NCBI GenBank assembly: GCA_965208835.1
Contig: OZ242358.1
Coordinates: forward strand, 4,640,001-4,704,000
Direction of reading: 5' to 3'
DNA length: 64,000 nt
Source of the DNA: Candidatus Latescibacterota bacterium
Lineage (GTDB): Bacteria > Latescibacterota > UBA2968 > GCA-2709665
Shown: one piece after another, positions 110-56,887 of the stretch
How the letters are laid out: every line of letters starts with the position of its first letter
Position numbering within the stretch: the stretch's first letter is position 1
Position numbers and translations under genes: made by a program
Notes under the pieces: model-generated
Seen by the model: the letters and a program-made list of their open reading frames with translations, nothing else
The model's database searches: none
Told to the model about the DNA's origin: nothing

Positions 110-295
110 GAAGCTGTCTTAAAATTCCCAGCGGTCTTCGCGCGGCTGCAAAAGCGCCGGTCGGCGTTGGTCAAACCCACCCGGCGTACGAGATCGAGGC
201 TGCGCTTGCTCGCCTCTCCTAGCCGGATTTGCCCGCCTTGACCGCCACTTTTTCGCTCGCGCTCGGGAACTCACCGGTAAATTTAATACAGCTTC
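110..295. mobile_element. MITE-like element family A, copy A1 (full length, variant inner hairpin)
   Basis: TIRs GAAGCTGTCTTAAAATT / AATTTAATACAGCTTC; arms near-identical to copies at 50223 and 56727; flanks ACA/TCA. Confidence 0.85.
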
Positions 296-460
296 TCAGA
301 TTCTGCTTGGGCATGGTGGAGAAAAACACATATCATCCACGTGTCCGATCACGGGACTGCGTGACGCACGCGCACTCGCTCATCCAGGCGTCCTCCCACC
401 CGGCGGTTGGATATCTATAACGTCGATGTCTCGGCCATCACGTCCCCATTGGATTGCAGC

Positions 461-1549
461 ATGACACGTGCCGATTCCATAACAGCCATCTCCCGGCGAA
501 AGCGCCTTATCGTTGACGCGGTTTCTCGACGTTACGATCTCGGTTCGTTGCGCCGTACAGAACGGCTGACAGGCGGCGTGCTCAATGAAGTTTATCTGAC
601 TGAAACGTCGCACGGAGAATTCGTTATACGGGTAAATCGCGTCCGAAGGTCCATCGCCGAAATTGAACGACTGTCGACCTTCCTGTCGCACCTGCGCAAT
701 CGCGGCATACCCGCGGACGAACTGGTTCCGGCGGACGACGGACGGGTCGCCGCGGAGATGGATGGCGAGCTGCTTTCCGTTCACCGAGTCATCCCTGGGA
801 CGGTACACGCCTCTCCGGCAGAGCTGAGCGAATCTCAGACCGCGAAATTGATGCGATTTCTCGCGTACTTCCATTCCGCGGCCGGGGAGTATCGAACCGA
901 CGGTGGACTCTCCGCCCGGGATGAAATGCTCCCTGTCATGTACACCGACGATCCGGACCGTCTCCGGGGGCGGTTGAAGCGCCTCCCGAAAATGGCGAAG
1001 GTGGAAGCATCGGCCGTTAACCGTGCAATCGACCGGCTGGCCTCGTTCTTTGCTTCAGGTGCATACAGGGAACTCAAACGGACCTGGGTCCACGGTGACT
1101 ATAGATTATGCAACGTGGCATTCGATGCAGACAGAGTGAGCGGACTGTTCGATTGGGACCTGCTATGCGAAGGCCCGCGGCTGTTCGACGTCGTGGTTGC
1201 GTCCGCGGACCTGGCCAGGACGAACGCCGGTCCCCTGTCCAGCAATCCCGAAATGTGGCAGGAGGACTTCCGGCGTCATCTCGCAGCCTACCGGAAGGAA
1301 GCGCGGCGACGCGGGGCCGACATGACCGAGTCCGAGGTCAGGTCGATTCCATACATGCTGCTGGCCGACGCCGTGCTCAGCGGCGTATTTTTCGCGTTGC
1401 ACTTGAGACAGTTGCCGCTGAAGCCGGGTGAATCCGCGTCCCAGCGTCTACGACTTTCGGACAGGCTCCTCGCGGAGTCCGTAACCGACCTCGCTGCGAT
1501 CGACAGTCAAATCGCCAATGGGGATGCGACCATGTCCCGCGACACATAA
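461..1549 (+). CDS. Phosphotransferase (APH / homoserine kinase type II family)
   Basis: HGDYRLCNV catalytic loop and downstream DWD motif; start at 461 (ATG) chosen over upstream TTG at 407. Confidence 0.8.
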   Translation: MTRADSITAISRRKRLIVDAVSRRYDLGSLRRTERLTGGVLNEVYLTETSHGEFVIRVNRVRRSIAEIERLSTFLSHLRNRGIPADELVPADDGRVAAEMDGELLSVHRVIPGTVHASPAELSESQTAKLMRFLAYFHSAAGEYRTDGGLSARDEMLPVMYTDDPDRLRGRLKRLPKMAKVEASAVNRAIDRLASFFASGAYRELKRTWVHGDYRLCNVAFDADRVSGLFDWDLLCEGPRLFDVVVASADLARTNAGPLSSNPEMWQEDFRRHLAAYRKEARRRGADMTESEVRSIPYMLLADAVLSGVFFALHLRQLPLKPGESASQRLRLSDRLLAESVTDLAAIDSQIANGDATMSRDT

Positions 1550-1608
1550 AATCGCCGACCCCTTGCGCGGCGTGAGCTTCAACTCTTGACCTATCATTTT
1601 ACGATATT

Positions 1609-1643
1609 TAGGCTATTTCAAAGTCTGATATTGACATAGACTG
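1609..1643. repeat. 35-bp imperfect palindrome (14-7-14), site D1
   Basis: TAGGCTATTTCAAA-GTCTGAT-ATTGACATAGACTG; TTAGGCTATTTCAAAGTCT (19 bp) is repeated exactly at 2877-2895. Confidence 0.75.
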
Positions 1644-1659
1644 TATATTTCGTTATTTT
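1631..1659 (+). promoter_or_regulatory. sigma70-like promoter, probably giving a leaderless mRNA
   Basis: TTGACA-17 nt-TATTTT with ATG 6 nt downstream and no Shine-Dalgarno. Confidence 0.6.
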
Positions 1660-1665
1660 CACGGT

Positions 1666-2880
1666 ATGATTATACGTGAACTGATGCCCAGACTGAAGAA
1701 GGCCGCGGGAGCTTTCCCCGCCATTACGCTTACCGGTCCCCGGCAAAGCGGCAAGACGACGCTTTGTAAGGCCGTATTTCCCGAGCACAGGTATACAACA
1801 CTCGAGTCTCCGGACGTTCGCGCTTTTGCGGTAGAAGATCCACGTGGCTTTCTGGCTCAGTTTCCGGCCGGCGCCGTCATCGACGAGGTACAGCGAGCCC
1901 CGGACCTGCTTTCCTACTTGCAGGGCATCATCGACGATGACCCGGCACCCGGACGCTGGATCCTGACAGGATCGCAGAACCTCGCCCTGCTCGATTCGGT
2001 CAGCCAGTCGCTGGCAGGAAGGACCGCAGTATACTACCTGTTGACGCTTACCCGGGGGGAAGTGGAACGGTTCCGCATGTTTCCCGAGAGTCTGGAAGCG
2101 TCCCTCTTTGCAGGATCATATCCCCGCATATTCAACGATGGTCTGGACCCATCCGACTGGATTCGTTCCTATGTCGCCACCTATATCGAACGCGACGTGC
2201 GGACGATCAGCAACGTGGGAGACCTTGGCACATTCCAGCGATTTGTGGAATTGTGCGCCGGCCGCACAGCTCAATTGCTCAACATCTCCTCGCTGGCCGA
2301 CGACTGCGGAATTTCCCAGCCAGGCGCAAGAGCCTGGCTCAGCATCCTGGAGACCAGTTTCATCACCTTCAGGCTACCTGCATTTCACGCCAACCTTCGC
2401 AAACGTCTCGTCAAGATGCCCAAACTGCACTTCTACGACACCGGGCTCGTCTGCTGGCTGCTTGGTATCCGCACACCTGAACAGCTACGCAATCATCCGC
2501 TTCGCGGCCCGATTTTCGAGACCTGGGTCGTTTCTGAAATTGCAAAACACCGAACCAACCGCGGAGAAATGGGCGGCCTGTCGTTTTACCGGGACCGAAA
2601 CGGAGCTGAGGCCGACCTCGTCATCGAGCACCCATCCCATATCGCGCTTGTCGAGGCCAAGTCCGCCAATACAGCGTCGTCGAGCCTGTTTAACAGCATC
2701 GGTCGCGTGCAGAAACATCTCACACGGTTACCCTTGCCTGCTTCCGTCTTCGTCGTATACGGCGGTAACGAACGCCAGCGCCGGACGCAAGGCAGCCTGA
2801 TTCCGTGGCGAGACCTCCACGAAACGGCGTTTCAGATCAACCGATCGGAAGACGAATCTGCGAATACACGGACATATTAG
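1666..2880 (+). CDS. AAA+ ATPase (AAA_14 + DUF4143) with C-terminal PD-(D/E)xK-like segment
   Basis: Walker A GPRQSGKT, Walker B VIDEVQ, LTGS, KLHFYDTG, EADLVIE...VEAK. Confidence 0.9.
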   Translation: MIIRELMPRLKKAAGAFPAITLTGPRQSGKTTLCKAVFPEHRYTTLESPDVRAFAVEDPRGFLAQFPAGAVIDEVQRAPDLLSYLQGIIDDDPAPGRWILTGSQNLALLDSVSQSLAGRTAVYYLLTLTRGEVERFRMFPESLEASLFAGSYPRIFNDGLDPSDWIRSYVATYIERDVRTISNVGDLGTFQRFVELCAGRTAQLLNISSLADDCGISQPGARAWLSILETSFITFRLPAFHANLRKRLVKMPKLHFYDTGLVCWLLGIRTPEQLRNHPLRGPIFETWVVSEIAKHRTNRGEMGGLSFYRDRNGAEADLVIEHPSHIALVEAKSANTASSSLFNSIGRVQKHLTRLPLPASVFVVYGGNERQRRTQGSLIPWRDLHETAFQINRSEDESANTRTY

Positions 2881-2912
2881 GCTATTTCAAAGTCTAGTTT
2901 TAAATTAGCCTA
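2878..2912. repeat. 35-bp imperfect palindrome (14-7-14), site D2
   Basis: TAGGCTATTTCAAA-GTCTAGT-TTTAAATTAGCCTA; first TAG is the ATPase stop codon. Confidence 0.75.
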
Positions 2913-3000
2913 CTAATGTGCGTGCCGACACCGTACGGAAGCGCGCCTCGGTCCCTGGCGCGTACACCTATTGATCGGATTGAGTATCGGAAAAGCGGAT

Positions 3001-4269
3001 ATGGATCTGAACCGGGTGGTATTGGATCTGGATATCGCGCAGAGTCGAAGGGTCCTTGAGTCGTCGTGGGAGGCCTCCCGGAGCTCGATGCCGGACGGGG
3101 GTGTCCCGTTTCTGTCAACGGACTTCGTGAGCGAGGCCTGCCGGGGAATTTTTCTCCCGGAAGACATCGTGAAGGCTGCCGTCGCCGCGGCGGATCTTGT
3201 GGCGCGAGTCCCCGCGTTGTGCGCGCTGGCGTGGCATTGCCACTGGTGTCTCTACCATGTGAAAGGATATTCCAGCCGCCTGGCGGACGACTGGCCCTGT
3301 ATGAAGGGACCACTGGGAGAACGGGCAGGTCTCTTCTACCTGCTGGTGCTGCTGTCGCGGTTTCACGAAATGCGATCGGTACATCGGGCGCACGGGATTC
3401 CCGAACGGGTTGTACGGGACAGTATGGAACAGATTTATCTGAGGGGCGAAACCTGCAGTGAAATCTTCGGCCGGTGGGGCCTGGACGGACATGGTGCCCG
3501 CTGGCTGGCCAATTTCCTCCGCGGAGACATCTACGCACTGGGCCGTCTTGAACACCAGTTCAATGTGATGAACGACCCGTTTCGCGTCTATCGGCACAGG
3601 GAAGCGTCCACGGTCATCGCGCTGAGCGAAGAAGGCGTCGCCTATCGACGCGACGGCCAGCGGCACAGAGGCGGAGATGCCCCGGCCGCGTGGACCTCCC
3701 GGCTCCGCATCACGGGAGACAGGATTGCCGGCCACCCCCTCCTTCCGACCGGTCGAGCATCCGAAGAAATGGTGACGCTCGCCGCGGCCGACTGGGTTCC
3801 TGTACTCGAACCGGGGGACCCCGTCCTGTATTTTCATATTCCCGGAGGAATACCGCTGGACCACGGCGCCTGCGGGGACTCTTTCAGGGCGGCGATGGAT
3901 TTCTTCCCTCGACATTTTCCCGAACGCCCGTACAAGGCGTTCTTCTGTGGTTCGTGGTTGCTGGATACGCAGTTGGAAGACTGGCTGCCGTCCGAATCGA
4001 ATCTGGTGCGTTTCATGCGGGAATTCTACCTGGTACCCGGCGGCATCTCGGAACGGTCGATTCTGCAGACGGTGTTCGGGAATGCGGCGGATGACCTGAG
4101 AAACGCGCCCGGCGACACGTCGCTGCAGCGGGCAATAAGGGACCATGTCTCCGCCGGCGGCCCGATCGACCCCCGCGCCGGCAAATGCTTTTTGTTCCCT
4201 GACGATCTGGATTGGGGCCGACAGGTATACCGAACATCGAAGTTTCCCTGGCATCTGGTCGGTTGTTGA
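3001..4269 (+). CDS. DUF5596-like acyltransferase-domain protein
   Basis: LGRLEHQ, HIPGGIPLD and CGSWLLD motifs typical of this family. Confidence 0.7.
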   Translation: MDLNRVVLDLDIAQSRRVLESSWEASRSSMPDGGVPFLSTDFVSEACRGIFLPEDIVKAAVAAADLVARVPALCALAWHCHWCLYHVKGYSSRLADDWPCMKGPLGERAGLFYLLVLLSRFHEMRSVHRAHGIPERVVRDSMEQIYLRGETCSEIFGRWGLDGHGARWLANFLRGDIYALGRLEHQFNVMNDPFRVYRHREASTVIALSEEGVAYRRDGQRHRGGDAPAAWTSRLRITGDRIAGHPLLPTGRASEEMVTLAAADWVPVLEPGDPVLYFHIPGGIPLDHGACGDSFRAAMDFFPRHFPERPYKAFFCGSWLLDTQLEDWLPSESNLVRFMREFYLVPGGISERSILQTVFGNAADDLRNAPGDTSLQRAIRDHVSAGGPIDPRAGKCFLFPDDLDWGRQVYRTSKFPWHLVGC

Positions 4270-4343
4270 GCGGAAAGACGCGGCGTTACCGCGCTGCGAC
4301 GCGGTCGACCGCTGGTTGAGAGCGGAAACACAAGGAGGGCAAT

Positions 4344-5474: not shown

Positions 5475-5549
5475 AAGACGATCGTCACCGGGAAATGCGC
5501 ACGGTTGATCTGAATTGCCCGGAAATGCGGCTGGAGAGAGCGGGAGGGT

Positions 5550-7135: not shown

Positions 7136-7138
7136 CGG

Positions 7139-15812: not shown

Positions 15813-15967
15813 GTGTTCTGTCCCGGAAATAAGTTGGCTAAATTCGACCGCTGAGTCGCCCGGCTCGCAAGGCGCCTCCGACCTGCGTATGGTCGGCGAG
15901 CGAGGGGAACGTAGCGAGAAGGGATGAATCGGCGGTCGAATGGTGAGAAATTTTCGGGACAGGACAC
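15813..15967. mobile_element. MITE-like element family C, copy C1 (full length)
   Basis: TIRs GTGTTCTGTCCCGGAAA / TTTTCGGGACAGGACAC; colinear homologue at 48930-49083. Confidence 0.8.
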
Positions 15968-24552: not shown

Positions 24553-25554
24553 ATGCGCGAAAGCACGGAAGTAAACCACGGTTGGAACTACAAAAACCAC
24601 ATTCAGCCGGATGCAGCAGGGGAAACCGTTCTTCAGTTCTATCTCCGGCGCTATCCGCACTCGTCCGCGGAAGCCTGGCGGAAACGTATCCTGTCCGGTG
24701 AAGTAAGGCTGAACGACCGGCCGACCACGCCCGAAACCCTGCTCTCCACGGGACAGCGGCTCACTTACCACCGGAAGCCATGGCCGGAACCGGACGCGCC
24801 AGTTTCGTTTGCGTTACTCTACGAAGACGAACACCTCATCGCCGTAGCCAAACCCGCCGGCCTCCAGGTGCTGCCCGGCGGCCAACACCTTCGGAACACA
24901 CTGCTCGCCCGGGTCCGGGAACGCTATCCGGAAACCCCGGGACCCGCGCCCCTCCATCGCCTCGGGCGGGGAACTTCGGGTGTGGTCCTGTTCGCCCGTA
25001 CCGAATTGGCGAGACGAGTCCTTTCAGATGATTTCCGAAACCGGAGGATATGCAAGATCTACCGCGCACTCGTCGCCGGCACCGACATGCCCGATCGGTT
25101 TACGGTGGATGTACCCATCGGGCGGATACCGTATCCCCCGACCCGGTACCTGCACGCGGCAACGAGCGAGGGAAAACCGGCCCGGACGGAATGCCGGGTC
25201 CTCAACCGCATCCCGGACGGCAATCGGAGCCTGATCCGCGTCAATCTCATCACCGGCCGCGCACACCAGATCCGGATTCACCTTGCCGCGGCCGGTCATC
25301 CGCTAGTTGACGACCCCCTTTATCGCTCCGGCGGCCTTCCGGCAGTTCCAACCGCCGGAAGTCGGGCGCCGCTGCCTGGAGACATCGGATACCACCTTCA
25401 CGCCCAGGAACTCCACTTCACGCACCCCACGACAAGCCGGATCGTACATCTGGCGTGCCTGCCGCCGCCAATTCTCCGTACGCCGGTGGAAGTGGCCGGA
25501 CAGAACAGCCCTCCGCAACTACCTGAATCCCGAACCTGTAGAGTCAGACGTTAA
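24553..25554 (+). CDS. RluA-family RNA pseudouridine synthase
   Basis: AVAKPAGL, HRLGRGTSG, TGRAHQIRIH, GHPLVDDPLY. Confidence 0.88.
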   Translation: MRESTEVNHGWNYKNHIQPDAAGETVLQFYLRRYPHSSAEAWRKRILSGEVRLNDRPTTPETLLSTGQRLTYHRKPWPEPDAPVSFALLYEDEHLIAVAKPAGLQVLPGGQHLRNTLLARVRERYPETPGPAPLHRLGRGTSGVVLFARTELARRVLSDDFRNRRICKIYRALVAGTDMPDRFTVDVPIGRIPYPPTRYLHAATSEGKPARTECRVLNRIPDGNRSLIRVNLITGRAHQIRIHLAAAGHPLVDDPLYRSGGLPAVPTAGSRAPLPGDIGYHLHAQELHFTHPTTSRIVHLACLPPPILRTPVEVAGQNSPPQLPESRTCRVRR

Positions 25555-26333
25555 TCCCGGATCCTGGTCGTCTCATCCGTACGCGCCTGCTCGATATGCC
25601 TGCCGGTAAAACCCACGGCATTTCGGAGATCGGCGCCGCGCAGGTCTGTATTCTGTAGATTGGCCTTATAGAGGTCGGCGTTCTGCATTCGGGCTTTGGT
25701 TAACCTCGCGCATCTGAGGTCTGCCTGTACCAGGTCTGAATTCTGAAGCCTCGCGCTCTGCAGATCGGCATTCCTCAGGTCGGCCCCCTGAAGATTCGCA
25801 CCCTGAAGGTTTGCGCCCCGCAGATTGGCGCCCCCCAGGTCGGCGTTGAGAAGGTTCGCGTCCTGGAGGTCCGCCCTGCGCAAATCCGTTCCGCCGAGCG
25901 TGGCATCGCGCAGGTTCGCGGCCCGCAGTGTGGCTCTCTGCAGCCGGGCGCCGGAGAGATCGGCATTCGATAGATCGGCGAGTTCCAGGTCTGCCGGCGC
26001 CAGATTGGCGCACCTAAGGTTCGCGCCCCGGAACAGGGCGCGCTGGAGAGGGGCGCCCGAGAAATCGGCTTCCTGAAGGTTTGCATCGCGGAAGTTGGCT
26101 TCGTAGAGCCTGGCGCGCTGGAGGTTGGCGCCCCTAAGGTCTGCATTCTGAAACCGCACGCCGCTGAGGATGGCTTCGCTCAGATCCGCGTACTCGAGCC
26201 TGGCATCCTGAAGTTCCGCCCGGTTCAGGTTTACGCCGGACATTTCGGCCCGTTCTCCCGCTGCCCCTCCGGAATCGAGCCACACACGGTGCCGGTCGAT
26301 GACAAGGCGCAGTTCTGAGGGTGACAATGGCAT
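25551..26333 (-). CDS. Pentapeptide-repeat protein
   Basis: Long run of A(D/N)Lxx pentapeptides after the H.xWL...G.RA N-terminal cap. Confidence 0.93.
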   Translation of the reverse strand: MPLSPSELRLVIDRHRVWLDSGGAAGERAEMSGVNLNRAELQDARLEYADLSEAILSGVRFQNADLRGANLQRARLYEANFRDANLQEADFSGAPLQRALFRGANLRCANLAPADLELADLSNADLSGARLQRATLRAANLRDATLGGTDLRRADLQDANLLNADLGGANLRGANLQGANLQGADLRNADLQSARLQNSDLVQADLRCARLTKARMQNADLYKANLQNTDLRGADLRNAVGFTGRHIEQARTDETTRIRD

Positions 26334-44118: not shown

Positions 44119-44913
44119 ATGTCCAGACATAGACCGATCTATTCACGGACGCAGGAACGTCAGCGGATTCATCACGAGGAGGCGGAACCGCGATCGTCGG
44201 CCCGCGTATTGCGGTGGATTGTCATTCTGGCGCTCGTTGGATTGCTGTTTTTCGGGATTCAGAACGCATATTCGGCACTCACCGATTCCGACCTGTTTCG
44301 TCTGGGCCATATTACCGTGGTCGGCAACCAGTTCCTGAAGGAAAGCGAAGTCGAGGTCCTGTCCGGTCTGAAAATCGGCGTCAATCTGTTTGCGGCCGAT
44401 CTTAGGGCGGCGACGCAACGGTTGGTGGCAGACCCTTCGATCAGGGACGCGATGTTACTGAGACAACCTCCGAACGGGCTTCTCATCGAACTGCAGGTGA
44501 GGCGCCCGCTTGCGCTGGCCGCAGTGTCGGAGAGATTGTTCGTGCTGGACGGGGATGGCGTGCTCTTTCCGCTGCCTCAGGCGCCGTTAGACCTGCCGAT
44601 CGTGACCGGCATTGAAACAGTCGTAGACACACCGGGGGTCTATCGATTTTCCCACCTCGTGGCATTCCTGGATCAGCTTCGGTCAAACGCGCCGGCGTTT
44701 CTGGACGACGTCTCCGAAGTAAACCTGGTCTCCGCCACGGAGGCGCGGGTCTATCTGGTGGGAGACGGGCTGACGCTTCTCATGCGACTTGAAGATGCGA
44801 CTGACCAGGTCCGTCGGTTTGATGCGTTTTTAAAGGCGGGAGCGCACAGAGTTCGGACGCCGTCCTACGTCGATCTCCGGTTTTCAAATCAAGTCGTTGT
44901 GGGCACAGGGTAA
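44119..44913 (+). CDS. ftsQ: Cell division protein FtsQ/DivIB
   Basis: TM + POTRA (ITVVGN...), LDGDG, LPIVTG, YVDLRF; SD GGAGG. Confidence 0.9.
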   Translation: MSRHRPIYSRTQERQRIHHEEAEPRSSARVLRWIVILALVGLLFFGIQNAYSALTDSDLFRLGHITVVGNQFLKESEVEVLSGLKIGVNLFAADLRAATQRLVADPSIRDAMLLRQPPNGLLIELQVRRPLALAAVSERLFVLDGDGVLFPLPQAPLDLPIVTGIETVVDTPGVYRFSHLVAFLDQLRSNAPAFLDDVSEVNLVSATEARVYLVGDGLTLLMRLEDATDQVRRFDAFLKAGAHRVRTPSYVDLRFSNQVVVGTG

Positions 44914-45067
44914 CAGTCCGTTGACAAAGTCGTTCTGCTGGCGAGGCGTTTTGGACGAAGACAAAGCGCGCGACTGAGCCCCATCCAACGATTCGGCGAG
45001 GGAGCGCAACGCAGGTTTTCGACCGCAGGGGTCGGCCGCAGCCCGGATGGACTTTTCCAACGGGCTG
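44914..45067. mobile_element. MITE-like element family B, copy B1 (full length)
   Basis: TIRs CAGTCCGTTG / CAACGGGCTG; flanks GTAA/CTAA; begins immediately after the ftsQ TAA. Confidence 0.8.
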
Positions 45068-45135
45068 CTAAGCACCAGGAGTTTCGCGAACCGGTATCAG
45101 GCACCCTTCATGCAGTAGCCGGAAAGGAAGCGAGG

Positions 45136-46371
45136 ATGGCCAGAGGGGATCAGATCGTTGGATTGGATATTGGAACGACCAAGATCTGTGTGGTCGTGGC
45201 CGACGTGGAGGAAGACGATCAGCTCAGGATTGCGGGTATTGGCACAAGTCCTTCCAACGGGCTGAAACGCGGCGTCGTGGTAAATGTCGCCCAGACGGTC
45301 CAATCCATTGAGCGCGCCGTCGAAGAAGCCGAACAGGCCTCGGATGTACGTATCGGGGCGGTCTACGCCGGCATCGCGGGCGATCACATTCGCAGCCTCA
45401 ATTGCCGGGGGGTGATCGCAGTTTCAGGAAATGACAATGAGATTACAGCTCAGGATGAAGCGCGTGTGATTGAAACAGCCAAGGCGGTTTCGATACCCAT
45501 GGACCGGGAAATCATCCACGTGCTGCCCCAATCTTTCGCGGTGGACGATCAACCCGGTGTCAAGAATCCGATTGGAATGTCGGGAGTTCGTCTCGAAGCC
45601 GACGTGCACATGGTGACCGGTGCCGTGACGTCGGCACAGAACATATGCAAGAGCATCCGAAGGGCAGGTGTGGAGGTTGTGGACCTCGTGCTGGAACCGT
45701 TGGCATCCAGCTACGCCGTATTGTCGCCCGAGGAAGAAGAGATGGGCGTAACGCTGGTCGACATTGGCGGCGGTACAACCGACGTCGCGGTCTTTTACGA
45801 CGGGAGCATCCGGCATACGGCGGTCGTGGGACTGGGAGGCGAGAATGTAACCAGCGACATTTCAATCGGATTGAGAACACCCCTGGCACAGGCGGAAACC
45901 ATCAAGCGCTCTCGGGGCTGTTCGTCGCGCTCAATGGTCGAAAAGGACGAGACCATCCACGTGCCGGGAATAGGCGGACGGCCCTCTTTCGAAGTGCCGC
46001 GAGAGGAGCTGTCGGCGATTATCGAAGCGCGCATGGAGGAGATCTTCACCCTGGTCCATCGGGAAATCCGAAGGACCGATTATGCCGATCTGCTGGCGGC
46101 AGGCGTCGTTATCACCGGCGGCGGATCGATGCTCGAGGGGACGGCCGAGCTGGCCGAGAGGGTGTTCGGAATGCCGGTCAGCGTCGGCACGCCGAACGGC
46201 GTTGCCGGCCTTTCGGACGACGTCACCGAGCCCATCTACGCGACCGGTGTCGGCCTCGTGAAGTTCGGTCTGCAGCATCAGGAATTCGGTGGCGCGTTGA
46301 GCGCTGGCGGCAACGGTTATTTCGGATCGATTCTGGGCAGGATGAAAGCGTGGGTGAAGGACTTTTTCTAG
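45136..46371 (+). CDS. ftsA: Cell division protein FtsA
   Basis: GLDIGTTKI, IIHVLPQ, GMSGVRLE, DIGGGTT, VITGGG, C-terminal amphipathic helix. Confidence 0.98.
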   Translation: MARGDQIVGLDIGTTKICVVVADVEEDDQLRIAGIGTSPSNGLKRGVVVNVAQTVQSIERAVEEAEQASDVRIGAVYAGIAGDHIRSLNCRGVIAVSGNDNEITAQDEARVIETAKAVSIPMDREIIHVLPQSFAVDDQPGVKNPIGMSGVRLEADVHMVTGAVTSAQNICKSIRRAGVEVVDLVLEPLASSYAVLSPEEEEMGVTLVDIGGGTTDVAVFYDGSIRHTAVVGLGGENVTSDISIGLRTPLAQAETIKRSRGCSSRSMVEKDETIHVPGIGGRPSFEVPREELSAIIEARMEEIFTLVHREIRRTDYADLLAAGVVITGGGSMLEGTAELAERVFGMPVSVGTPNGVAGLSDDVTEPIYATGVGLVKFGLQHQEFGGALSAGGNGYFGSILGRMKAWVKDFF

Positions 46372-46535
46372 CAGCCCGTTGATGAAGTCGCTCTGCAGGC
46401 GAGGCCGAGCCATTGTGGCCGAAGACAAGGCGCGCAACCGAGTCCCATCCTGCGATTCGGCGAGGGAGCGCAACGCAGTATTTCGACCGCAAGGGCCGGC
46501 CGCACGGCAATCGCGAATTTTAACGGATGGGACTG
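46372..46535. mobile_element. MITE-like element family B, copy B2 (right end degenerate, boundary approximate)
   Basis: Left TIR CAGCCCGTTGATGAAGTC directly after the ftsA CTAG; interior colinear with B1. Confidence 0.75.
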
Positions 46536-46584
46536 ACCGACGGCGTTCGCCCACTCCACAACGCGAATTTATAGGAGGAGCTAA

Positions 46585-47748
46585 ATGGTCACGTTTTCAA
46601 TAGTCGATAATGACAATCAGGCGAAGATGCGGGTTGTGGGGGTTGGCGGCGCGGGGGGCAACGCGGTAAACCGGATGATCGCCGCAGATCTCAAGGGTGT
46701 GGAATTTATCGCGGTTAACTCCGATTTGCAGGATCTGGACAAATCCGAGGCGTCAAAACGGGTGCAAATTGGGGAGGCGATCACAAAAGGACTCGGCGCG
46801 GGTGCCAATCCGGAAATCGGACGGCAAGCCATGGAGGAAGACCGTGACCACGTCACGGAGCTTCTGGCCGGTTCGGATATGGTTTTCGTGACAGCCGGTA
46901 TGGGTGGCGGTACCGGGACCGGCGCTGCGCCAGTGGTGGCGGAAATCGCTAGAGATGCCGGCGCACTGACGGTAGGTATCGTGACCAAACCGTTCAAAAT
47001 GGAGGGCGTGCCCCGGTTGCGAAACGCGGAGATGGGCATCACTCAATTGAAGGATTCCGTGGACACGCTCATCGTCATTCCAAACCAGCGCCTCCTTGAC
47101 GTCTGCTCCGAGGAGACGACGCTGCGCGAGGCTTTTAGAGTTGCCGACGACGTCCTACTGCAGGCCACGCGCGGAATCTCGGACCTGATTGCGATGCCTG
47201 GCGAAGTCAATCTGGACTTCAATGACGTGCGTACGGTAATGCGGCAAGGGGGAGACGCGTTGATGGGAACCGGCACGGCCACCGGGGAGGGCCGCGCATT
47301 ACATGCTGCCGAGGCAGCCATCAGGAGCCCGTTGCTGGAAGATCTTTCGATCGACGGCGCACGGTTCGTGCTGATAAATATCGCCGCCGGCAGCGACTTG
47401 AAACTCTTTGAAGTCGATGAATCGGTATCTACCGTCACCAAGGCGGTCGGCTCCGAGGCGAACATAATCTGGGGTACAGTATTGGATGACGGGCTTAGCG
47501 ATGAGCTGCGGGTAACGGTGATTGCCACCGGCTTCGCCGAGCAAGAGAACGTCGCAGGAACGAAAGCGTCGCGAGTACCGATGGACAACCCGATCGGCCT
47601 GGACGTCCCGGCATATATGCGCAAAGCCGATGCCGCCCAGGTTACGGAGCCCCCTGTCGCGCCGGAGGAGAACGCTGAGGGGGATATTTCACTCGACGAC
47701 CTGGAAATCCCGTCGTTTCTGAGGCGGCGCCTGAAGGATACGGCCTGA
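46585..47748 (+). CDS. ftsZ: Cell division protein FtsZ
   Basis: GVGGAGGNAV, GGGTGTG, NLDFNDV, LEIPSFLRR. Confidence 0.99.
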   Translation: MVTFSIVDNDNQAKMRVVGVGGAGGNAVNRMIAADLKGVEFIAVNSDLQDLDKSEASKRVQIGEAITKGLGAGANPEIGRQAMEEDRDHVTELLAGSDMVFVTAGMGGGTGTGAAPVVAEIARDAGALTVGIVTKPFKMEGVPRLRNAEMGITQLKDSVDTLIVIPNQRLLDVCSEETTLREAFRVADDVLLQATRGISDLIAMPGEVNLDFNDVRTVMRQGGDALMGTGTATGEGRALHAAEAAIRSPLLEDLSIDGARFVLINIAAGSDLKLFEVDESVSTVTKAVGSEANIIWGTVLDDGLSDELRVTVIATGFAEQENVAGTKASRVPMDNPIGLDVPAYMRKADAAQVTEPPVAPEENAEGDISLDDLEIPSFLRRRLKDTA

Positions 47749-47832
47749 GAAGCTGTTTTATAACTCCCAGCGGTCTTCGCGCGGCTGCGAGAGCGCCGGT
47801 CGGGAACTTACCGGAAACTATAAAACAGCTTC
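47749..47832. mobile_element. MITE-like element family A, internally deleted copy A3
   Basis: Perfect 14-bp TIR GAAGCTGTTTTATA / TATAAAACAGCTTC; TGA...TGA duplication where the left TGA is the ftsZ stop. Confidence 0.87.
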
Positions 47833-47893
47833 TGACGCCCCGCTTCGCTTCGTCCCGATGAATGATACATCGGGATTACAGAGGATCAGAGAC

Positions 47894-48883
47894 ATGGAGT
47901 GCGTGCGATGGGGTATCGTTGGATGTGGCGATGTCACCGAGGTGAAGAGCGGACCTGGATTTCAAAATGCGAACGCGTCGAAGTTGATGGCGGTGATGCG
48001 GCGGGACGTGGACAAGGCGGCCGATTACGCGAACCGGCACTGCGTGCCCCGGCATTATGGCCATGCGGATGCATTGATTGAGGATGCCGGGGTCGATGCC
48101 GTGTATGTGGCGACCCCGCCTTCTTCGCATCTGGATCTGGCCTTGAAGGTGGCGCAGGCCGGAAAACCATGCCTTGTCGAAAAGCCGATGGCGATGAATC
48201 ACAGCGAATGCCGGCAGATGGCGGCGGCCTTCCGGAAAACTGGACGGCCGCTTTTCGTGGCATACTACCGGCGGGCGCTGCCTCGATTTCTGCGCGTCCG
48301 GGAGTTGCTCCGGGAAGGAGCGATCGGTGAGTTGAGTTCGGTTCATATTACACATTACGATCAGCTCGCCCGGGGTGAAGCGGCGAATGGCTGGCGATTC
48401 AGACCGGAGATATCGGGCGGGGGGTTGTTCATGGACCTGGGATCTCATGGCCTGGATTTGCTGGATTATCTCGTGAGTCCGATCAAGCGGGTCTGGGGAT
48501 GCGCGGCGAACACGGGAGGCACGTATAAGGCCGAGGACACGGTCGCGGCCAGCTTTGAGTTTGAATCCGGGATTGTGGGAACAGGCGTCTGGAACTTCAA
48601 CGCGGATTTTTCCGAAGATCGAATGACGTTTACCGGCTCCGACGGTGAGATGCAATGTCCTGTTTTTTCGGATACCGATATTCTGGTCACGAGAGGCGGG
48701 GCAACAACCACCCTGGAATTCAGGAATCCGCCTCATGTACATCAGCCGCTGATCCAGACGGTGGTGGATGAACTCCTGGGCTGGGGGACGTGCGAGTCAA
48801 CGGGCGAGAGCGCGGCGCGGACGGGATGGGTGATGGATCGATGCCTGCGATCGTACTACGAAGAACCCGACTCGACGTCTTGA
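47894..48883 (+). CDS. Gfo/Idh/MocA-family oxidoreductase
   Basis: WGIVGCG, VYVATPP, VEKPMA, GGLFMDLGSH. Confidence 0.92.
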   Translation: MECVRWGIVGCGDVTEVKSGPGFQNANASKLMAVMRRDVDKAADYANRHCVPRHYGHADALIEDAGVDAVYVATPPSSHLDLALKVAQAGKPCLVEKPMAMNHSECRQMAAAFRKTGRPLFVAYYRRALPRFLRVRELLREGAIGELSSVHITHYDQLARGEAANGWRFRPEISGGGLFMDLGSHGLDLLDYLVSPIKRVWGCAANTGGTYKAEDTVAASFEFESGIVGTGVWNFNADFSEDRMTFTGSDGEMQCPVFSDTDILVTRGGATTTLEFRNPPHVHQPLIQTVVDELLGWGTCESTGESAARTGWVMDRCLRSYYEEPDSTS

Positions 48884-48929
48884 GGAACACGCGCCGGTCC
48901 GCGAAGATCGCCTTTGCGTCAACGGACCG

Positions 48930-49083
48930 GTGTCCTGTCTCGGAATAGGTTGCCTAAATTCGGCCGTCGAGTCGCCCGGCTCGCAGGGCGCCTCTGACCT
49001 GCGTAAGGTCGGCGAGCGAAGGCAACGCAGCGAGACGGGATGAATCGGCGGGAGAATGGTGAGAAATCTCCGAGAAAGGACTC
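48930..49083. mobile_element. MITE-like element family C, copy C2 (full length)
   Basis: TIRs GTGTCCTGTCTCGGA / TCCGAGAAAGGACTC; colinear with C1; between convergent genes. Confidence 0.8.
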
Positions 49084-49104
49084 TGCAACTGTCCGGAAGG
49101 ACAG

Positions 49105-50202
49105 TCAGGCGGTCCTCCCGGTTTGAAGATATGCCTTTAGTTCGCATGGGTCCATCCCGGCGATACCAAGATCACTCACGTCTCTGCCTGAAGTCCAGCC
49201 GTCATCTCCGATGACGATAGATCCGATGTCGACCATCGCGCGAATGGTGGGTGCGGGTACATTGTACTGTGTACCGACCGAGTGCCACGCCGCCAGTCCA
49301 TAGGGAATGTCTTCCGTGAGCCAACGGCTGTCCATGGACCCCGGCGCTTTAAGCCTGGTGAGCATGTAACTGCCGTTAATGGTAGCCCAGAGATCTCCTT
49401 CCGGTCCGAAGCCGGCGCGATGAAAGGCGACATTCGCCGGGCACAGGTTGTAACCGAGTTGACTGGCAATCGCGCGGCGTTCACCGTCTACCTGCATGAT
49501 CACTCTGGCCACGGTTGGCGTGACGCCCTCTTCGTAAAAGTAAAACTCGCCGTGTGAATATTCCACGCGGCCGGCGTTAAGCAGGACGCCGGCGGGATGA
49601 ACCACAGGGTTCATTGCGGCCAGGCCGCAGGCCATCACGTCAGGATATCCCGTTATGCCCGGAAAGAGGGTATCCAGCCGTTCGCGCACGTGTTCGAATT
49701 CGCAGGCAGGAAAGACACCCAGGCCCATGCCTGTGACGATTCCCCAAATGGTTGCCGTGTCCGGCGCCGTCTTTCTGCAAACGAAAGGCGCTGTGTCCAC
49801 TTCGGCGAGAACGACGCCCCCGGTGCCGGCTTCCCTGAGGAGACGCGCCCATTCGAGGGTACCGAGGGTGCCGGGCATGATGACGACGGTCTGATCCGGT
49901 CGCAGGTGCGGCGCACAGACTTCGGCAAAGGGTTTGTGCGCATACGCAGGTACGATGAGCAGGATGATATCCGGCGATTCAAGTGCCTCCTCGACATCGG
50001 TGGTGATGCAATGGATCCTGGCCGCACCCTGTCCACCTGCACCGAGCAGATGGATGATGCCGTCGTCCACAACCGGATCCAGAGACTCCTTGAAACCGGG
50101 AATCTCATAGAGCGTAATCTGAAAACCCTTCAGACTGAGGTTGGCGGCCACGGCAAAAGCTGTGTTTCCACCACCAAGAACGGTTATGTTCTTCAGGGAC
50201 AT
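49105..50202 (-). CDS. NAD/NADP octopine/nopaline (opine) dehydrogenase family protein
   Basis: VLGGGN, NPVVHP, FYFYEEGVTP, DGERRAI, RWLTEDIPYGL. Confidence 0.88.
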   Translation of the reverse strand: MSLKNITVLGGGNTAFAVAANLSLKGFQITLYEIPGFKESLDPVVDDGIIHLLGAGGQGAARIHCITTDVEEALESPDIILLIVPAYAHKPFAEVCAPHLRPDQTVVIMPGTLGTLEWARLLREAGTGGVVLAEVDTAPFVCRKTAPDTATIWGIVTGMGLGVFPACEFEHVRERLDTLFPGITGYPDVMACGLAAMNPVVHPAGVLLNAGRVEYSHGEFYFYEEGVTPTVARVIMQVDGERRAIASQLGYNLCPANVAFHRAGFGPEGDLWATINGSYMLTRLKAPGSMDSRWLTEDIPYGLAAWHSVGTQYNVPAPTIRAMVDIGSIVIGDDGWTSGRDVSDLGIAGMDPCELKAYLQTGRTA

Positions 50203-50222
50203 TTCAAACGCCTCTCAGGTAA

Positions 50223-50384
50223 GAAGCTGTCTTAAAATTCCCAGCGGTCTTCGCGCGGCTGCAAAAGCGCCGGTCGGCGTTGGTCAAACCCACCCGTATA
50301 GACAAATATGGGAGGGTTTTCCCGCCTTGACCGCCACTTTTTCGCTCGCGCTCGGGAACTCTCTGGTAATCTTAAAACAGCTTC
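50223..50384. mobile_element. MITE-like element family A, copy A4 (full length)
   Basis: TIRs GAAGCTGTCTTAA / TTAAAACAGCTTC; flanks TAA/TGA. Confidence 0.87.
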
Positions 50385-50579
50385 TGAACAAACGCGTCGC
50401 GTAAATGGATTTTCCTATTGATTCGGATTCGGACTCGCGAACCGGCTTCTGTCCACTTCAGGCACCAATATAAACCCCCCGCAGTACTGGGACAAGACCG
50501 GATTCGTTGAGTTCGCGCGGCCGGATTGATCGATCTGCCGGCGCATGCCCCGCGACCGCTCAACACGAGGAGGAACGCA

Positions 50580-52396: not shown

Positions 52397-53266
52397 GTGA
52401 GTTCTAGAGATCCCGTCGTCGCATTCCAGGGTGAAATGGGCGCATTCAGCGAAATGGCCGCCCGCAGTTATTTCTGTGAGCAGGTTTGCGTGGTCCCGCA
52501 GGCCGATTTCGAAGGTCTCTTCAACGCCGTCTCCGGCGGTGTCTGCTCGCACGGCATGGTACCCATTGAGAATTCCCTCATGGGGAGCATTCACGAGAAC
52601 TACGATCTGCTCCTCCGGCAGGAACTGTACATCGTCGGCGAAATCAAGCTGCGAATCGTGCACAACCTTATTGTAAATCCGGGTGTCAGGATGGAAGACG
52701 TGAGGCAGATCTACTCACAGGCGCCTGCGCTCGCGCAGTGTACCGAGTTCATTCGATCCACCGCGGGCGTGGAAGCCGTGGTCGCGAACGACACGGCAGG
52801 CGCCGTCAAACAGATCAAGGAAGAGAACGCGAGAGATGCCGCCGCCATTGCCAGCGCACAGGCGGCCGTCGACTACGATCTGGAGATTCTCCGGGAAGGC
52901 CTCGAAAACGACCACCGGAATTATACCCGGTTTCTGGTCGTGGCCTCCGAACCCGCTGATCCTGTCGATCCCGCCAAAACCACCGTCGTCTATACCCTGG
53001 ATCACATCCCCGGAGCCCTGTTTAAAAGCCTGGGCGTATTTGCAATGCGGGATATCAACCTCCTCAAGATCGAATCGCGCCCCTTGAGCGGTCGACCCTG
53101 GGAATACGTCTTCTACCTGGATTTCGAAGGTCACATGTCCAGTGAAGAATGCCGGCAGGCGGTTGATCACCTTGAAAAAATGGCCAGCTTTCTCAAGATC
53201 CTCGGATCCTATGCGCTGGGCAAGACGGTCGAAGGCCGTTTGCGGGAGAAGAGGGTGGCCCCATGA
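52397..53266 (+). CDS. pheA: Prephenate dehydratase (with ACT domain)
   Basis: FQGEMGAFSE, PIENS, NYTRF, PGALF, LLKIESRP, YVFYLD. Confidence 0.95.
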   Translation: MSSRDPVVAFQGEMGAFSEMAARSYFCEQVCVVPQADFEGLFNAVSGGVCSHGMVPIENSLMGSIHENYDLLLRQELYIVGEIKLRIVHNLIVNPGVRMEDVRQIYSQAPALAQCTEFIRSTAGVEAVVANDTAGAVKQIKEENARDAAAIASAQAAVDYDLEILREGLENDHRNYTRFLVVASEPADPVDPAKTTVVYTLDHIPGALFKSLGVFAMRDINLLKIESRPLSGRPWEYVFYLDFEGHMSSEECRQAVDHLEKMASFLKILGSYALGKTVEGRLREKRVAP

Positions 53267-54432
53267 ATCTGGCGCACAGGATGGACAACCTCGGTACAGA
53301 GTCCGCTTTCGAAGTACTCGTGAAGGCGCGAGACCTCGAAGCCCGCGGCAGAGACGTAGTCCACCTTGAAATCGGCGAGCCCGATTTCGATACACCTGCC
53401 CACATCGTCAATGCGGCCGGACAGGCGCTTCGTTCGGGTTATACCCATTACGGTCCCCCGGTGGGTCTGCCGGAACTTCGCGAGGCCATCGCTGACGACG
53501 TCTCCCGGTTCCGTGGAATCCCGGTCAATCCGGATCAGGTTGTGGTCACCCCCGGCGCCAAACCGATTATGTTCTACGCCATTCTGGCCCTCGCGCAGGC
53601 GGGAGACGAGGTGATCTATCCCGATCCCGGATTTCCCATCTACGAGTCCGTAATCAGATTTGCGGGCGCCCGGCCGGTGCCCATTTCGCTCACGGAAGAA
53701 CGCGACTTCAGTCTCGACGTGAATGAACTTGCGGACCTGATCAACGACCGCACCCGGCTTCTCATCATCAATTCCCCGCAAAACCCCACCAGTGGAATCA
53801 TCCCTCCGGCAGACCTGAAGGCGATCGCGGATATCGTCGTGGACAAGGGAATCCCGGTACTCGCCGACGAGATCTACTCCCGGATCCTGTACGAAGGCGC
53901 ATTCCACAGTATCTCGGTGTACGACGGTATGCAGGACCAGACCATCATTCTGGATGGCTTCTCCAAGACGTACGCGATGACGGGATGGCGAATCGGGTAC
54001 GGTGTGATGCCGCAAAGTCTGGCGGAAAAGTTCGGACTCCTGATGGTCAACAGCAACTCCTGTACCGCGACGTTCACCCAAAGGGCCGCACTGGCCGCAC
54101 TTCAGGGCCCTCAGTATGACGTCCAGGCGATGGTGGCTGAATTCAAACGCCGGCGGGACATCTTCGTCACGGGACTCCGCGAAATCCCGGGCATTCGCTG
54201 CCCGCTCCCGGGTGGCGCGTTTTACCTCTTTCCGAATGTTTCGGACCTGGGACTCTCCTCTCAGGAATTCGCTGATTACCTTTTGTACGAAGGAAACGTC
54301 GCGGCTCTCTCCGGCCATGGCTTCGGCGCGTTCGGAGAAGGGCACATCCGCTTTTCCTTCGCCAATTCGGTCGAAAACATCCAAAAGGCGCTGAATCGTA
54401 TCGCGGTGTGCGTGCGGAACATCCGGCGATGA
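53263..54432 (+). CDS. Class I/II PLP aminotransferase (aspartate/aromatic type)
   Basis: IGEPDFDTP, NSPQNPT, DEIY, GFSKTYAMTGWRIG, GAFY; ATGA overlap with pheA. Confidence 0.93.
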   Translation: MNLAHRMDNLGTESAFEVLVKARDLEARGRDVVHLEIGEPDFDTPAHIVNAAGQALRSGYTHYGPPVGLPELREAIADDVSRFRGIPVNPDQVVVTPGAKPIMFYAILALAQAGDEVIYPDPGFPIYESVIRFAGARPVPISLTEERDFSLDVNELADLINDRTRLLIINSPQNPTSGIIPPADLKAIADIVVDKGIPVLADEIYSRILYEGAFHSISVYDGMQDQTIILDGFSKTYAMTGWRIGYGVMPQSLAEKFGLLMVNSNSCTATFTQRAALAALQGPQYDVQAMVAEFKRRRDIFVTGLREIPGIRCPLPGGAFYLFPNVSDLGLSSQEFADYLLYEGNVAALSGHGFGAFGEGHIRFSFANSVENIQKALNRIAVCVRNIRR

Positions 54433-54566
54433 CACGCGGCTCGTGACGGCCGTAAAATAACCCCGGTGAAGAATCGTCATCGGGGCATCTTGTATTCGAT
54501 GTGGAAGTGTCATTCAGACGCACGGAGGGCAGGATACCCCCCGCATAAGACTGACCTTCCCGCTTT

Positions 54567-56681
54567 CTACCACATCACGCGAAATGACGTGGCCGTACTC
54601 ACTTCCTGCCGGCTGTTCAAATCGAAAACTTTCACACGGAAATCCCTGGGGCCGGGAAACATCTCCAGTTTCAACACCTGGTATATCGGCTCCCAAGCCT
54701 GCGAACCCTTGTGGGTATAGGAGACCGCCGTTGTCCATTCCGGCTCCGCCTCCGCGTCGTCTTCCTTCAAGGTCCGGATCTGGTAGGTTACCTGATAGTT
54801 GGTTGCGCCGAAGCGGTCCTTCTGAAGGTTGTAGACTTCATAGTAGAAGTAAGCCTGTGCGCCCTGTCGATACTGTTTGAGCGGATTGGGCAGAATGAGA
54901 TACCGATCCCGTCCGTAAGGCGCCTGCTCCCTTTCGACGATCCTTCGCGCAAGCAACATGTCGCTCACGCTCAGCGAATCGTATCCAAATTCCCCAATCT
55001 GCAGGACGCTCCGGAACGTACCTATCGAATTTGTCTTCCTGTCCTCGGCCTCCGCCGCTATGAAATACTTCCCCGGCGACAACATCAGCTTCTCGCCGGT
55101 AAACAGATACCCTTCCCGGGTTGCTTCATACTGTACCCACGGCATGACATCAACCCTTCCGATATCCTTCCTCAGCGTATCCCAATCCGCGTCGAACAGG
55201 AACAGTCCCTGCCGGATTTCCACGGCCTGCGCCCCGGCCTGCACCTCTTTGTGTTGTACTTCCTCTCCAGGAAGCGCGTAGTATACCTCCACTCTGGCCT
55301 TGTCGCCTTCCCCGCGAAACCGGGCCATCTGGTACGGGGCATCGTAGCGCTCCCATTTGTATGGATCCTTATAGTACTCGGGCACCCTTGTCGTCAATGC
55401 CTCCAGATCCATCGGTCTCCTTCCCAACCAGCCCACGCGATAGCGCCAGGTATCCCGCGTATCCGTATTTGCAAATAACAGCCGAAACCCGCCGTAGTCC
55501 CACATCTCAAGACGGGGACGGTGTTTGAACGGCGTCGTCCCCTGCTGAGTCAGCCAGTACAGATGGTCCTGGTACCACGTCGGTTCATCCAGACCTGTAT
55601 CGATCTCGGGCGGGCGGACGCTTCTTGCCTCCGGACGTCCATAACGGATGTACGCCTGACCCTTGTCCGTCGTCCAGCCCGCTATTCCGCGTTCCGGATC
55701 TCCGAAACGAAGGTTGGCGTATGCCACCCTTCCACAGTGTTCCATCAGGCGCTCGTTAACCGGCGTGAGGAACAACGGATCGCGGCCGGTCCAGAATGCC
55801 CGCAACGCCTCTTCATCCGGGAGATCTTCGCCCGCCTCCATGCCCTGTTTGCCCACCAGCATGAATACCGACATCATGAACTGCTGTTCCCGCGCCGACA
55901 TCCGGCTTAATCCGTTCACGTAGGCCGGATAGGCGCGCTGGAGTTCTTCCTGCGCCTGGTATGCCAGTCCCAGGAAGAAATGGACGTCGGGATCGTCCGG
56001 GCGGCGCTTCAGGAAGTCCTCGAAAAGCACCGCCATCTTTTCCGGCATCAGGGCTTCGTAATACACCAGTCCCAGCAGCAGCAGCGAAGGTCTGTGCTCG
56101 GGATCGACATCCAGCGCCCTGGTCAGGTATCCGATCGCCTGGTCCCGGTCCTTCTCCCCGAATCTTTCCAGACTGAACGATCTCATTCGCCGATTGCCCA
56201 GGTCATCGTATTGATAATCGATGCGCTCGCTTTCGAGGTAACGCGACATCTGCCACGCCGCGTACCGGCCGGCCAGGTACAAGGCGCCGACGTGGTTCGG
56301 GTTCATGTCAATTGCCTTTTTCGCATTCTTGTAGGCGTGGCCTCTTCTGCCCAGCGCCCACAATACCCTCGCATATTCGATTCGAAAGTCGATATTCGAC
56401 TTGTCTTTCCGCATCGCCCGTTGCAGCCACGTCGAGGCCTGTCTGCGCGTACCCTGCGTGCTTTCATCGCTGTAGAGCCGGGCGAGTTCGTACATTGCCC
56501 ATCCTGTGTCATCGAACCGGATCGCCTCTTTCAAAAGTCTGGTGCGTTTCCCGTATTCGACGGTTGTATCCGACGCCGCCGCAAGGAGCGAGTCCACACG
56601 CATCGAAACCGCCCGTGCGGCTTCGACGTGCGCCGCACAGACCGGAATGGCTGCCAGAATCACAAGAAGCATTGCCCGCAT
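54567..56681 (-). CDS. Secreted TPR + GWxTD domain protein
   Basis: Signal peptide, TPR-like helices, FWTGRDP...NE...H..R..YA..F...GWTTDKG..YIRYGRP, YYEVYNL. Confidence 0.88.
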   Translation of the reverse strand: MRAMLLVILAAIPVCAAHVEAARAVSMRVDSLLAAASDTTVEYGKRTRLLKEAIRFDDTGWAMYELARLYSDESTQGTRRQASTWLQRAMRKDKSNIDFRIEYARVLWALGRRGHAYKNAKKAIDMNPNHVGALYLAGRYAAWQMSRYLESERIDYQYDDLGNRRMRSFSLERFGEKDRDQAIGYLTRALDVDPEHRPSLLLLGLVYYEALMPEKMAVLFEDFLKRRPDDPDVHFFLGLAYQAQEELQRAYPAYVNGLSRMSAREQQFMMSVFMLVGKQGMEAGEDLPDEEALRAFWTGRDPLFLTPVNERLMEHCGRVAYANLRFGDPERGIAGWTTDKGQAYIRYGRPEARSVRPPEIDTGLDEPTWYQDHLYWLTQQGTTPFKHRPRLEMWDYGGFRLLFANTDTRDTWRYRVGWLGRRPMDLEALTTRVPEYYKDPYKWERYDAPYQMARFRGEGDKARVEVYYALPGEEVQHKEVQAGAQAVEIRQGLFLFDADWDTLRKDIGRVDVMPWVQYEATREGYLFTGEKLMLSPGKYFIAAEAEDRKTNSIGTFRSVLQIGEFGYDSLSVSDMLLARRIVEREQAPYGRDRYLILPNPLKQYRQGAQAYFYYEVYNLQKDRFGATNYQVTYQIRTLKEDDAEAEPEWTTAVSYTHKGSQAWEPIYQVLKLEMFPGPRDFRVKVFDLNSRQEVSTATSFRVMW

Positions 56682-56726
56682 ACGCCCTCCAGTTACACGT
56701 GACGTCAAGTATCCCGACACCTTTAC

Positions 56727-56887
56727 GAAGCTGTCTTAAAACCCCCAGCGGTCTTCGCGCGGCTGCAAACGCGTCGGTCTGCGTTGGTCAAATCCACCCG
56801 TATACCCAAATATGGGCGAATTTGTCCGCCTTGACCGACACATTTTCGCGCGCGCTCGGGACTCACCAGGAATTTTAAAACTGCTTC
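56727..56887. mobile_element. MITE-like element family A, copy A5 (full length)
   Basis: TIRs GAAGCTGTCTTAAAA / TTTTAAAACTGCTTC; colinear with A4; flanks TAC/TAA. Confidence 0.85.

Follow-up and report, generated by a model that had tools for sequence, protein, structure and literature searches.

The stretch of DNA analysed here (the window) comprises 64,000 nt, positions 4,640,001-4,704,000 of the single 5.18-Mb contig (59.5% G+C) of a Candidatus Latescibacterota bacterium; the sequencing runs with DNA matching the window were mostly sponge metagenomes. The window holds nine copies of three families of short repeats, A, B and C, and an initial annotation had proposed that all seven full-length copies carry, within unrelated ends and arms, one and the same structured core, in which two short words (CAAGGCG and, on the other side, CAACGC followed by a variable end) close a variable hairpin. 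This core, which we call the module, is the subject of the present analysis. The families themselves are families of MITEs (miniature inverted-repeat transposable elements), that is, lineages of non-autonomous DDE transposons. The nine copies and the word pairs (word 1/word 2) are listed below, together with the scores obtained with two covariance models, R1 and R2, both trained without any A sequence.

110-295, minus strand: A1, long form of family A (~186 nt); module at 162-240, words verified; partial match to R1 of 9.9 bits
15813-15967, plus strand: C1, MITE of family C; module at 15868-15914, a 47-nt variant with word 2 GAACGTAG; R1 53.8 bits, R2 49.5 bits
33784-33867, minus strand: short family-A copy (~84 nt) without module; the 84-nt class occurs with an identical junction at other genomic loci
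44914-45067, plus strand: B1, MITE of family B; module at 44962-45014, word 1 CAAAGCG; R2 62.1 bits
46372-46535, plus strand: B2, MITE of family B with a diverged right arm; module at 46426-46478; R2 67.8 bits
47749-47832, minus strand: short family-A copy (84 nt) without module, of the same class as the 84-nt copies elsewhere in the genome
48930-49083, plus strand: C2, MITE of family C; module at 48984-49030, word 1 CAGGGCG; R2 57.2 bits
50223-50384, minus strand: A4, medium form of family A (162 nt); module at 50275-50329; single-stranded DNA fold z-score -7.4; R2 27.3 bits
56727-56887, minus strand: A5, medium form of family A; module at 56779-56833, word 2 CAACGCAG; R2 30.2 bits, E 8.9e-5
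Word pairs, plus strand: C1 15868-15874/15907-15914; B1 44962-44968/45007-45014; B2 46426-46432/46471-46478; C2 48984-48990/49023-49030
Word pairs, minus strand: A1 240-234/169-162; A4 50329-50323/50282-50275; A5 56833-56827/56786-56779

Base-by-base reading of the window reproduced all 14 motif coordinates of the seven word pairs exactly, as well as the word variants that had been named (CAAAGCG, CAGGGCG, GAACGTAG and CAACGCCG). The two short A copies hold no core. When the nine window copies were used as BLAST queries, 402 merged loci were obtained genome-wide (A 160, B 153, C 89), among which 121 A, 95 B and 48 C copies are full-length. According to the family consensuses, the elements are about 85-190 nt long, noncoding and of high copy number, and carry terminal inverted repeats.

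Whether the three families share more than chance would give them was judged on the family consensuses and on shuffles of them, besides the two covariance models. The claim that the arms are unrelated held in Smith-Waterman comparisons of the consensuses, where no significant match appeared between A and B or between A and C, and the three families do not align end to end as one diverged family. The alignment between B and C is confined to a 57-nt core bounded by the two words, and its score was reached by 2 of 500 shuffles; on this sequence comparison, the 53-55-nt centre of B and C is homologous. What family A has in common with B and C is the two end words, the length and the geometry of the hairpin, its interior being dissimilar. 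Profile hidden Markov models of each core recovered only their own family, plus weak matches from C to B.

The resemblance of family A might thus be a coincidence, in which case only B and C would share the module and A would be an unrelated foldback that happens to have two short GC-rich words at its apex. Besides the unlike interior of A, the permutations of the word pairs speak for this and count against a module common to all three families. Pairwise, the observed value was reached in 309 of 400 shuffles for A-B, in 131 of 400 for A-C and in 67 of 400 for B-C; in the three-way permutation, 724 of 2000 shuffles reached the observed exact score of 12, with scores of at least 13 in 161 and of at least 15 in 5 of them, so that the observed value lies within the reach of 8-36% of the shuffles. 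Position 7 of word 2 is variable within every family, A lacks the double G·A motif described below, and the long form A1 fits R1 poorly, with 9.9 bits. However, the models trained without A find A. The top matches in the window outside the training set were A5 and A4 both with R1 (20.3 and 18.0 bits; background at most 13) and with R2 (30.2 and 27.3 bits; E-values of 8.9e-5 and 4.1e-4, which are rough owing to a short calibration; background at most 15.8). A descriptor restricted to B and C (word 1, 30-43 nt, SAACGYNG) gave 177 matches in the genome, of which B accounts for 93, A for 43 and C for 34; the remaining 7 lie outside these families and correspond to a background rate of 7 matches in about 10.4 million positions. 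At least three of four flanking bases were complementary on each side in 43/43 A matches versus 0/7 of the outside matches. The length of the unit also agrees among these matches, with 55 nt in 41 of 43 A, 53 nt in 86 of 93 B, and 55 or 47 nt in C. In another 100 kb, selected because it contains 25 copies of other repeat families, none of these copies was matched, the best background score being 15.2 bits. The best 150 candidates of a whole-genome search with R1 were all B or C; an R1 search with default filters over 1.2 Mb missed one known A copy and is therefore unusable as an estimate of the background. Finally, the words are mostly retained in A-like copies from two other genera (G015 and G021), which show compensatory changes in the stems. 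Taken on both sides, a coincidence appears unlikely to us, and family A probably does share the module.

The layout of the module can be described as follows. CAAGGCG stands on the 5' side and (C/G)AACG(C/T)NG on the 3' side; the two may form a GCG:CGC helix, AA or CAA is left unpaired, and at the base a closing C:G pair is continuous with an outer stem specific to each family. In our model, the hairpin above the words has about 20 pair positions. From the base upward, it comprises in B and C a 3-bp stem, then a tandem G·A/A·G, 2 bp and another tandem G·A/A·G; above these come an 8-bp apical stem, whose sequence is free but complementary, and a loop of 5 nt, while family A has ordinary pairs where B and C hold the G·A oppositions.

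The pairing proposed by the initial annotation was found in 96% of the cells of 18 B and C sequences, with 9 of 15 pairs changed on both sides. The GCG:CGC helix in particular proved compatible, with 100% of the cells paired and its three variant cells all of the G-U type, but its columns hardly vary and leave it unproven, and RNAalifold favours a register that differs slightly. With 37 sequences from at least four genera, RNAalifold gave 16 pairs, 12 of them with double changes. A 25-pair model on the same number of sequences had 14 pairs doubly changed (160 cells) and a covariation score that 0 of 500 shuffles reached, and controls with slid partners were 28-40% paired. The module shows covariation, which in the other genera is heavy in the apical stem, the end words being almost invariant there. 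Four oppositions were non-standard in 33-35 of the 35 sequences with letters there; read by eye, they are G·A or A·G and form two tandem steps flanking two ordinary pairs. On the other strand these oppositions would be pyrimidine clashes; they are meaningful on one strand alone. Many pairs in the fold are of the G-U type. With RNA parameters and counting distinct units, the strand carrying the words was the better-folding one in 40 of 41 units in A, 57 of 81 in B, 26 of 33 in C and 20 of 22 from other genera. Among B-like and C-like lineages, the apical stem shows 3-5 pair types per position, and conservation reaches 90% or more in 24 of 71 columns. What bears on conservation of the words across genera is a selection of sequences on the interior framework alone, for the B-type mid-stem only; this selection yielded 35 matches (control 0) with at least seven apical stems, in which CAAGGC was present in 34/35 and AACGCNG in 32/35.

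Beyond this genome, the strict motif was enriched in all 14 congeners searched, the other 16 relatives being at the level of the reversed control. In a sample of 121 genomes of the phylum, descriptor matches against the reversed control were 47 vs 1 in G107, 43 vs 3 in G125 and 36 vs 3 in G104, with weaker enrichment in G075, G091 and G092; the enriched genera represent another family of the same class. Within a genus, the presence of the module is patchy. At 23 loci from G104, G107 and G125, inspection by eye revealed B-like shells and at least six other types of inverted repeat, the apical stem differing from type to type. As far as can be told by eye and without clustering, many of the additional shells are C-like, diverged relatives of family C with which they also have the inner arms in common. 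Three further copies of the module were found in G016, and two in G033, a member of a different family of the phylum; these two have C-like shells and CTAG flanks. The module was never found outside a MITE, whether free-standing or in tandem clusters. Thus, the description of the module as cargo in different transposon ends is right in that one core sits in different shells, but it overstated the independence of the module, since the module is confined to MITEs and the C-like shells share inner arms.

Rfam 15 gave no match to the cores in 44850-50450 at E-values up to 10, and over the whole window only a tRNA reached the gathering score (RF00005, 17637-17710, minus strand, 75.2 bits); the module thus matches no Rfam family. 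Elsewhere in the window, degenerate direct repeats with a spacing in multiples of 15 nt lie at 25742-26189, within the long open reading frame (ORF) 25551-26333 (minus strand), and resemble a coding region of the pentapeptide-repeat type.

All three families bear marks of transposition. Family A has a 3-bp TNA target duplication, exact in 39 of 74 end pairs; in family B the flanks are TA-centred in 49 of 102 pairs and short B copies show a 4-bp NTAN duplication; family C has CTAG-type flanks at the level of the consensus only, the test for exact duplication not having been passed. Contigs from other sequencing runs lack B1 (X6 and X7, joint 44911>45077), skip C2 (X5, joint 48937>49099, and X7, record 15) and lack A4 (X5, X6 and X8, joint 50219>50385), and at the site of B2 the runs X6 and X7 have 10 other letters instead (joint 46371>46495). 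Since these contigs join across B1, C2 and A4, all three families have been mobile recently.

With regard to parent elements, the congener G001 carries (locus L066) a 1552-bp insertion sequence (IS) with a 448-aa DUF772 transposase, whose ends match the 16-bp ends of family B. Beyond the ends, this IS has nothing in common with family B, and it contains neither word. No autonomous element with A or C ends was found in the own genome or among 20 IS loci. None of the 23 transposase loci that were sampled contains the module. Where two family ends lie 0.3-4 kb apart in the own genome, the interval holds ordinary genes or nested MITEs, and such pairs were discarded as autonomous partners; no PF01609 or PF05598 transposase was found there. 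The sole DDE transposases found there are two intact-looking DDE_3 (IS630-type) frames of 368 and 389 aa (G000:C1:4422160-4422597 and 4436844-4437281); they were rejected as a source of A, B or C, their surroundings being without the end words of the three families (apart from one chance C anchor word each) and their ends being unrelated. Apparent A ends near IS in loci L071 and L079 turned out to be false matches.

Several other observations were made on the elements. A 324-nt composite, in which a C element is nested inside a B element and which holds two modules (e.g., contig C1:1313-1636), occurs 10 times; as it does so at the same length, it was amplified as one unit. C elements carry insertions of 22-23-nt pieces of a short, abundant repeat unit, whose 15-nt word occurs 128 times, directly after the CA of words 1 and 2; the insertions appear to strike both words at the same relative position (e.g., contig C1:4731270-4731456 and 878327-878535; also L110, L113 and L136). 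In other genomes of the genus, B and C arms contain a small nested palindrome, rich in GC and some 30 nt long (L133:6955-7158; L139:10493-10702; L136:18785-19065). Other abundant repeat families without the module exist in the genome, one with about 149 copies of ~186 nt and one with about 67 copies of ~202 nt and TTAA ends. According to crude gene calls, the MITEs favour divergent over convergent spacers (A 34 vs 10, B 26 vs 11), compared with 419 vs 385 for all spacers.

We consider that the module may be a selected, strand-specific hairpin that serves the MITEs in cis, a reading to which, judging from sequence, we give about an even chance. Invariant unpaired bases, conserved G·A oppositions and covarying stems within otherwise unlike arms favour a selected fold, since this combination would be hard to obtain from drift alone. 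Several results weigh against it, in addition to the word permutations given above. A B form of about 107 nt lacks word 1 and the hairpin and occurs in at least nine copies with one shared junction, mostly with matching 4-bp flanks that differ between loci; the 84-nt A form without module occurs at 4-5 loci; and in an A subfamily of 18-22 copies word 1 is replaced by a nested insert. Forms without the module have therefore multiplied, and the module is not required for transposition. No orientation bias was seen relative to neighbouring genes, called with a crude home-made procedure based on GC3 (A 35 vs 38, B 32 vs 25, C 20 vs 15), and with respect to replication there is no more than a weak bias (A 64 vs 57, C 22 vs 28, B 39 vs 65, p=0.014). 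The folding asymmetry between strands is also present in 5 of 7 chance matches and vanishes for B with DNA parameters. The sequences of one alignment (A2) were gathered with a pattern containing the words; covariation among palindromic elements anchored on shared words is possible without functional selection; and the copies are related, so that their counts do not represent independent events. Within this genome, identity per column is uniformly 0.84-0.90, without higher conservation of the words than of the remaining element sequence.

Alternatively, the module might be a neutral passenger, either filler inherited from the centre of one ancestral MITE or a segment swapped among co-resident MITE lineages by nested insertion and subsequent deletion. 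The stems would then be complementary because none but good foldbacks transpose, or because the arms correct each other, and the words and G·A oppositions would be frozen accidents in young families that spread horizontally. Nesting with later amplification is real, as the 10 occurrences of the 324-nt composite indicate, internal deletions at short direct repeats are common, and forms without the module multiply; patchiness within one genus is what selfish bursts would leave, and both the lack of orientation bias and the uniform conservation within the genome point the same way. However, the unpaired words have stayed identical although the three families have completely diverged in their arms, and the apical stem varies through 3-5 pair types per position while 24/71 columns stay at least 90% conserved. 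Correction between arms should erase mismatches, and yet the four G·A oppositions persist in 33-35 of 35 sequences. Moreover, the words are kept where they had not been selected for (34/35 and 32/35). In our judgement, a neutral passenger is rather unlikely.

As a special case of the selected hairpin, the MITEs might be transcribed and the module read as a structured RNA by an RNA-binding protein or a nuclease, in the way proposed for Correia/NEMIS RNA and RNase III. It could then be a signal for processing or stability, a small RNA with a regulatory role or a ribozyme-like fold not described so far. The strand-specific fold, the tandem G·A motifs and the many G-U type pairs would suit an RNA, and RNase III can act on RNAs of known bacterial MITEs, according to a review by Delihas (PMC2229807). 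On the other side, no Rfam family is matched at E-values up to 10, neither a sigma-70-like promoter nor an intrinsic terminator was detected in the five elements scanned (44800-50500), and the elements are not co-oriented with neighbouring genes. We regard the RNA version as quite unlikely. Within the selected-hairpin reading, we allot a modest share to a single-stranded DNA form and a smaller one to RNA, the rest being undecided between them.

Known systems resemble the module in part. Bacterial MITEs of the IS5/IS1182 type are likewise short, with terminal inverted repeats and TA-centred 3-4-bp duplications, present in hundreds of copies, intergenic and polymorphic among strains; here, in contrast, one internal structured module is retained by three lineages whose ends are unrelated, and it is absent from the IS and from the 23 loci. 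The Correia/NEMIS elements exist, as one account has it, in long and short forms (155 bp versus 107 bp) that differ by an internal segment of about 50 bp with an IHF site, and their RNA hairpin is an RNase III substrate (PMC2229807). The short A and B forms without the central segment are similar, whereas the module differs in being common to unrelated types of ends and across genera, and in its conserved G·A oppositions. No IHF-like site was recognised when the module was compared by eye with the consensus.

Integron attC sites and the module have in common that they fold on one strand, that bases at the foot are conserved and bases between helices unpaired, and that the terminal stem varies. 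Unlike attC sites, the modules are single, dispersed inside MITEs and without cassette arrays (integrases were not searched for), and on inspection by eye the words do not, to our knowledge, fit attC core sites. Repetitive extragenic palindromic sequences (REP) and bacterial interspersed mosaic elements (BIME) are short hairpins rich in GC, in which the foot of the stem bears a conserved word; they are mosaic or nested in arrangement and bound by host proteins. The module differs from them in never being free-standing or clustered in tandem and in lying always inside a DDE-type MITE. An affiliation with REP and their associated transposases (RAYT) or with palindromic elements derived from IS200/IS605 was dropped, as the own genome holds no Y1 gene (no match to the Y1 (HUH) transposase PF01797) and no strong replication-orientation bias was seen; an IS91-type (rolling-circle) affiliation was dropped as well, with one weak partial match to PF04986 across 15 genomes of the genus. 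A role as recombinase or nuclease substrate found no support; there is no IS200-type Y1 gene in the own genome and essentially no IS91-type Y2 in the genus. In a kink-turn, a three-nucleotide bulge is directly followed by tandem G·A pairs; judged by eye, the module does not fit this description, since in the model the CAA bulge and the first tandem G·A have three standard pairs between them, and the two G·A steps lie in a symmetric internal loop. In the literature searched, mainly at the level of abstracts, no description of the module was found.

The initial annotation had taken the core for a recognition module acting as single-stranded DNA or RNA. A structured core within different ends, its conservation across genera and oppositions that make sense on one strand speak in favour of part of this. 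None of the three outcomes that the initial annotation had named as refuting it (a match to a described motif, lack of covariation, end-to-end alignment of the families) was obtained. The conserved core, its occurrence in further genera and the one-strand non-Watson-Crick oppositions fit a folded single strand that something recognises, and we infer that the module is selected, acts in this folded form and is read by a protein. On the reading of a selected hairpin, three MITE lineages of uncultured sponge-associated Latescibacterota, each with its own ends and arms, would carry the same 53-55-nt module at their centre. This module would be a selected structure that folds on one strand only, as single-stranded DNA or RNA, and would belong to the MITEs and not to their parent insertion sequences. 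Most likely it would be a cis-acting site, architectural or for recognition by a protein, that aids the persistence or spread of the elements, without being strictly needed for their mobilisation. Going one step further, and more tentatively, the module could represent an undescribed class of cis-acting hairpins, about 54 nt long, in which the foot (CAAGGCG ... CAACGC) is conserved and a tandem G·A occurs twice, and which unrelated MITEs would have kept or exchanged across genera. It might be read by a protein of the host or of the transposon, with the hypervariable but paired apical stem setting the specificity of each lineage.

MITEs are usually seen as transposon ends around arbitrary filler, and here one non-Watson-Crick hairpin is kept across several genera by elements whose ends are unrelated. 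Such a pattern suggests an internal function shared or traded among parasitic elements, be it a handle for a protein, a fold that helps to bring the two ends together or a structured transcript. If confirmed, the module would be a structured nucleic-acid motif not contained in Rfam 15 and a marker for the exchange of elements among sponge symbionts, and it would provide a testable case of selection inside non-coding mobile DNA.

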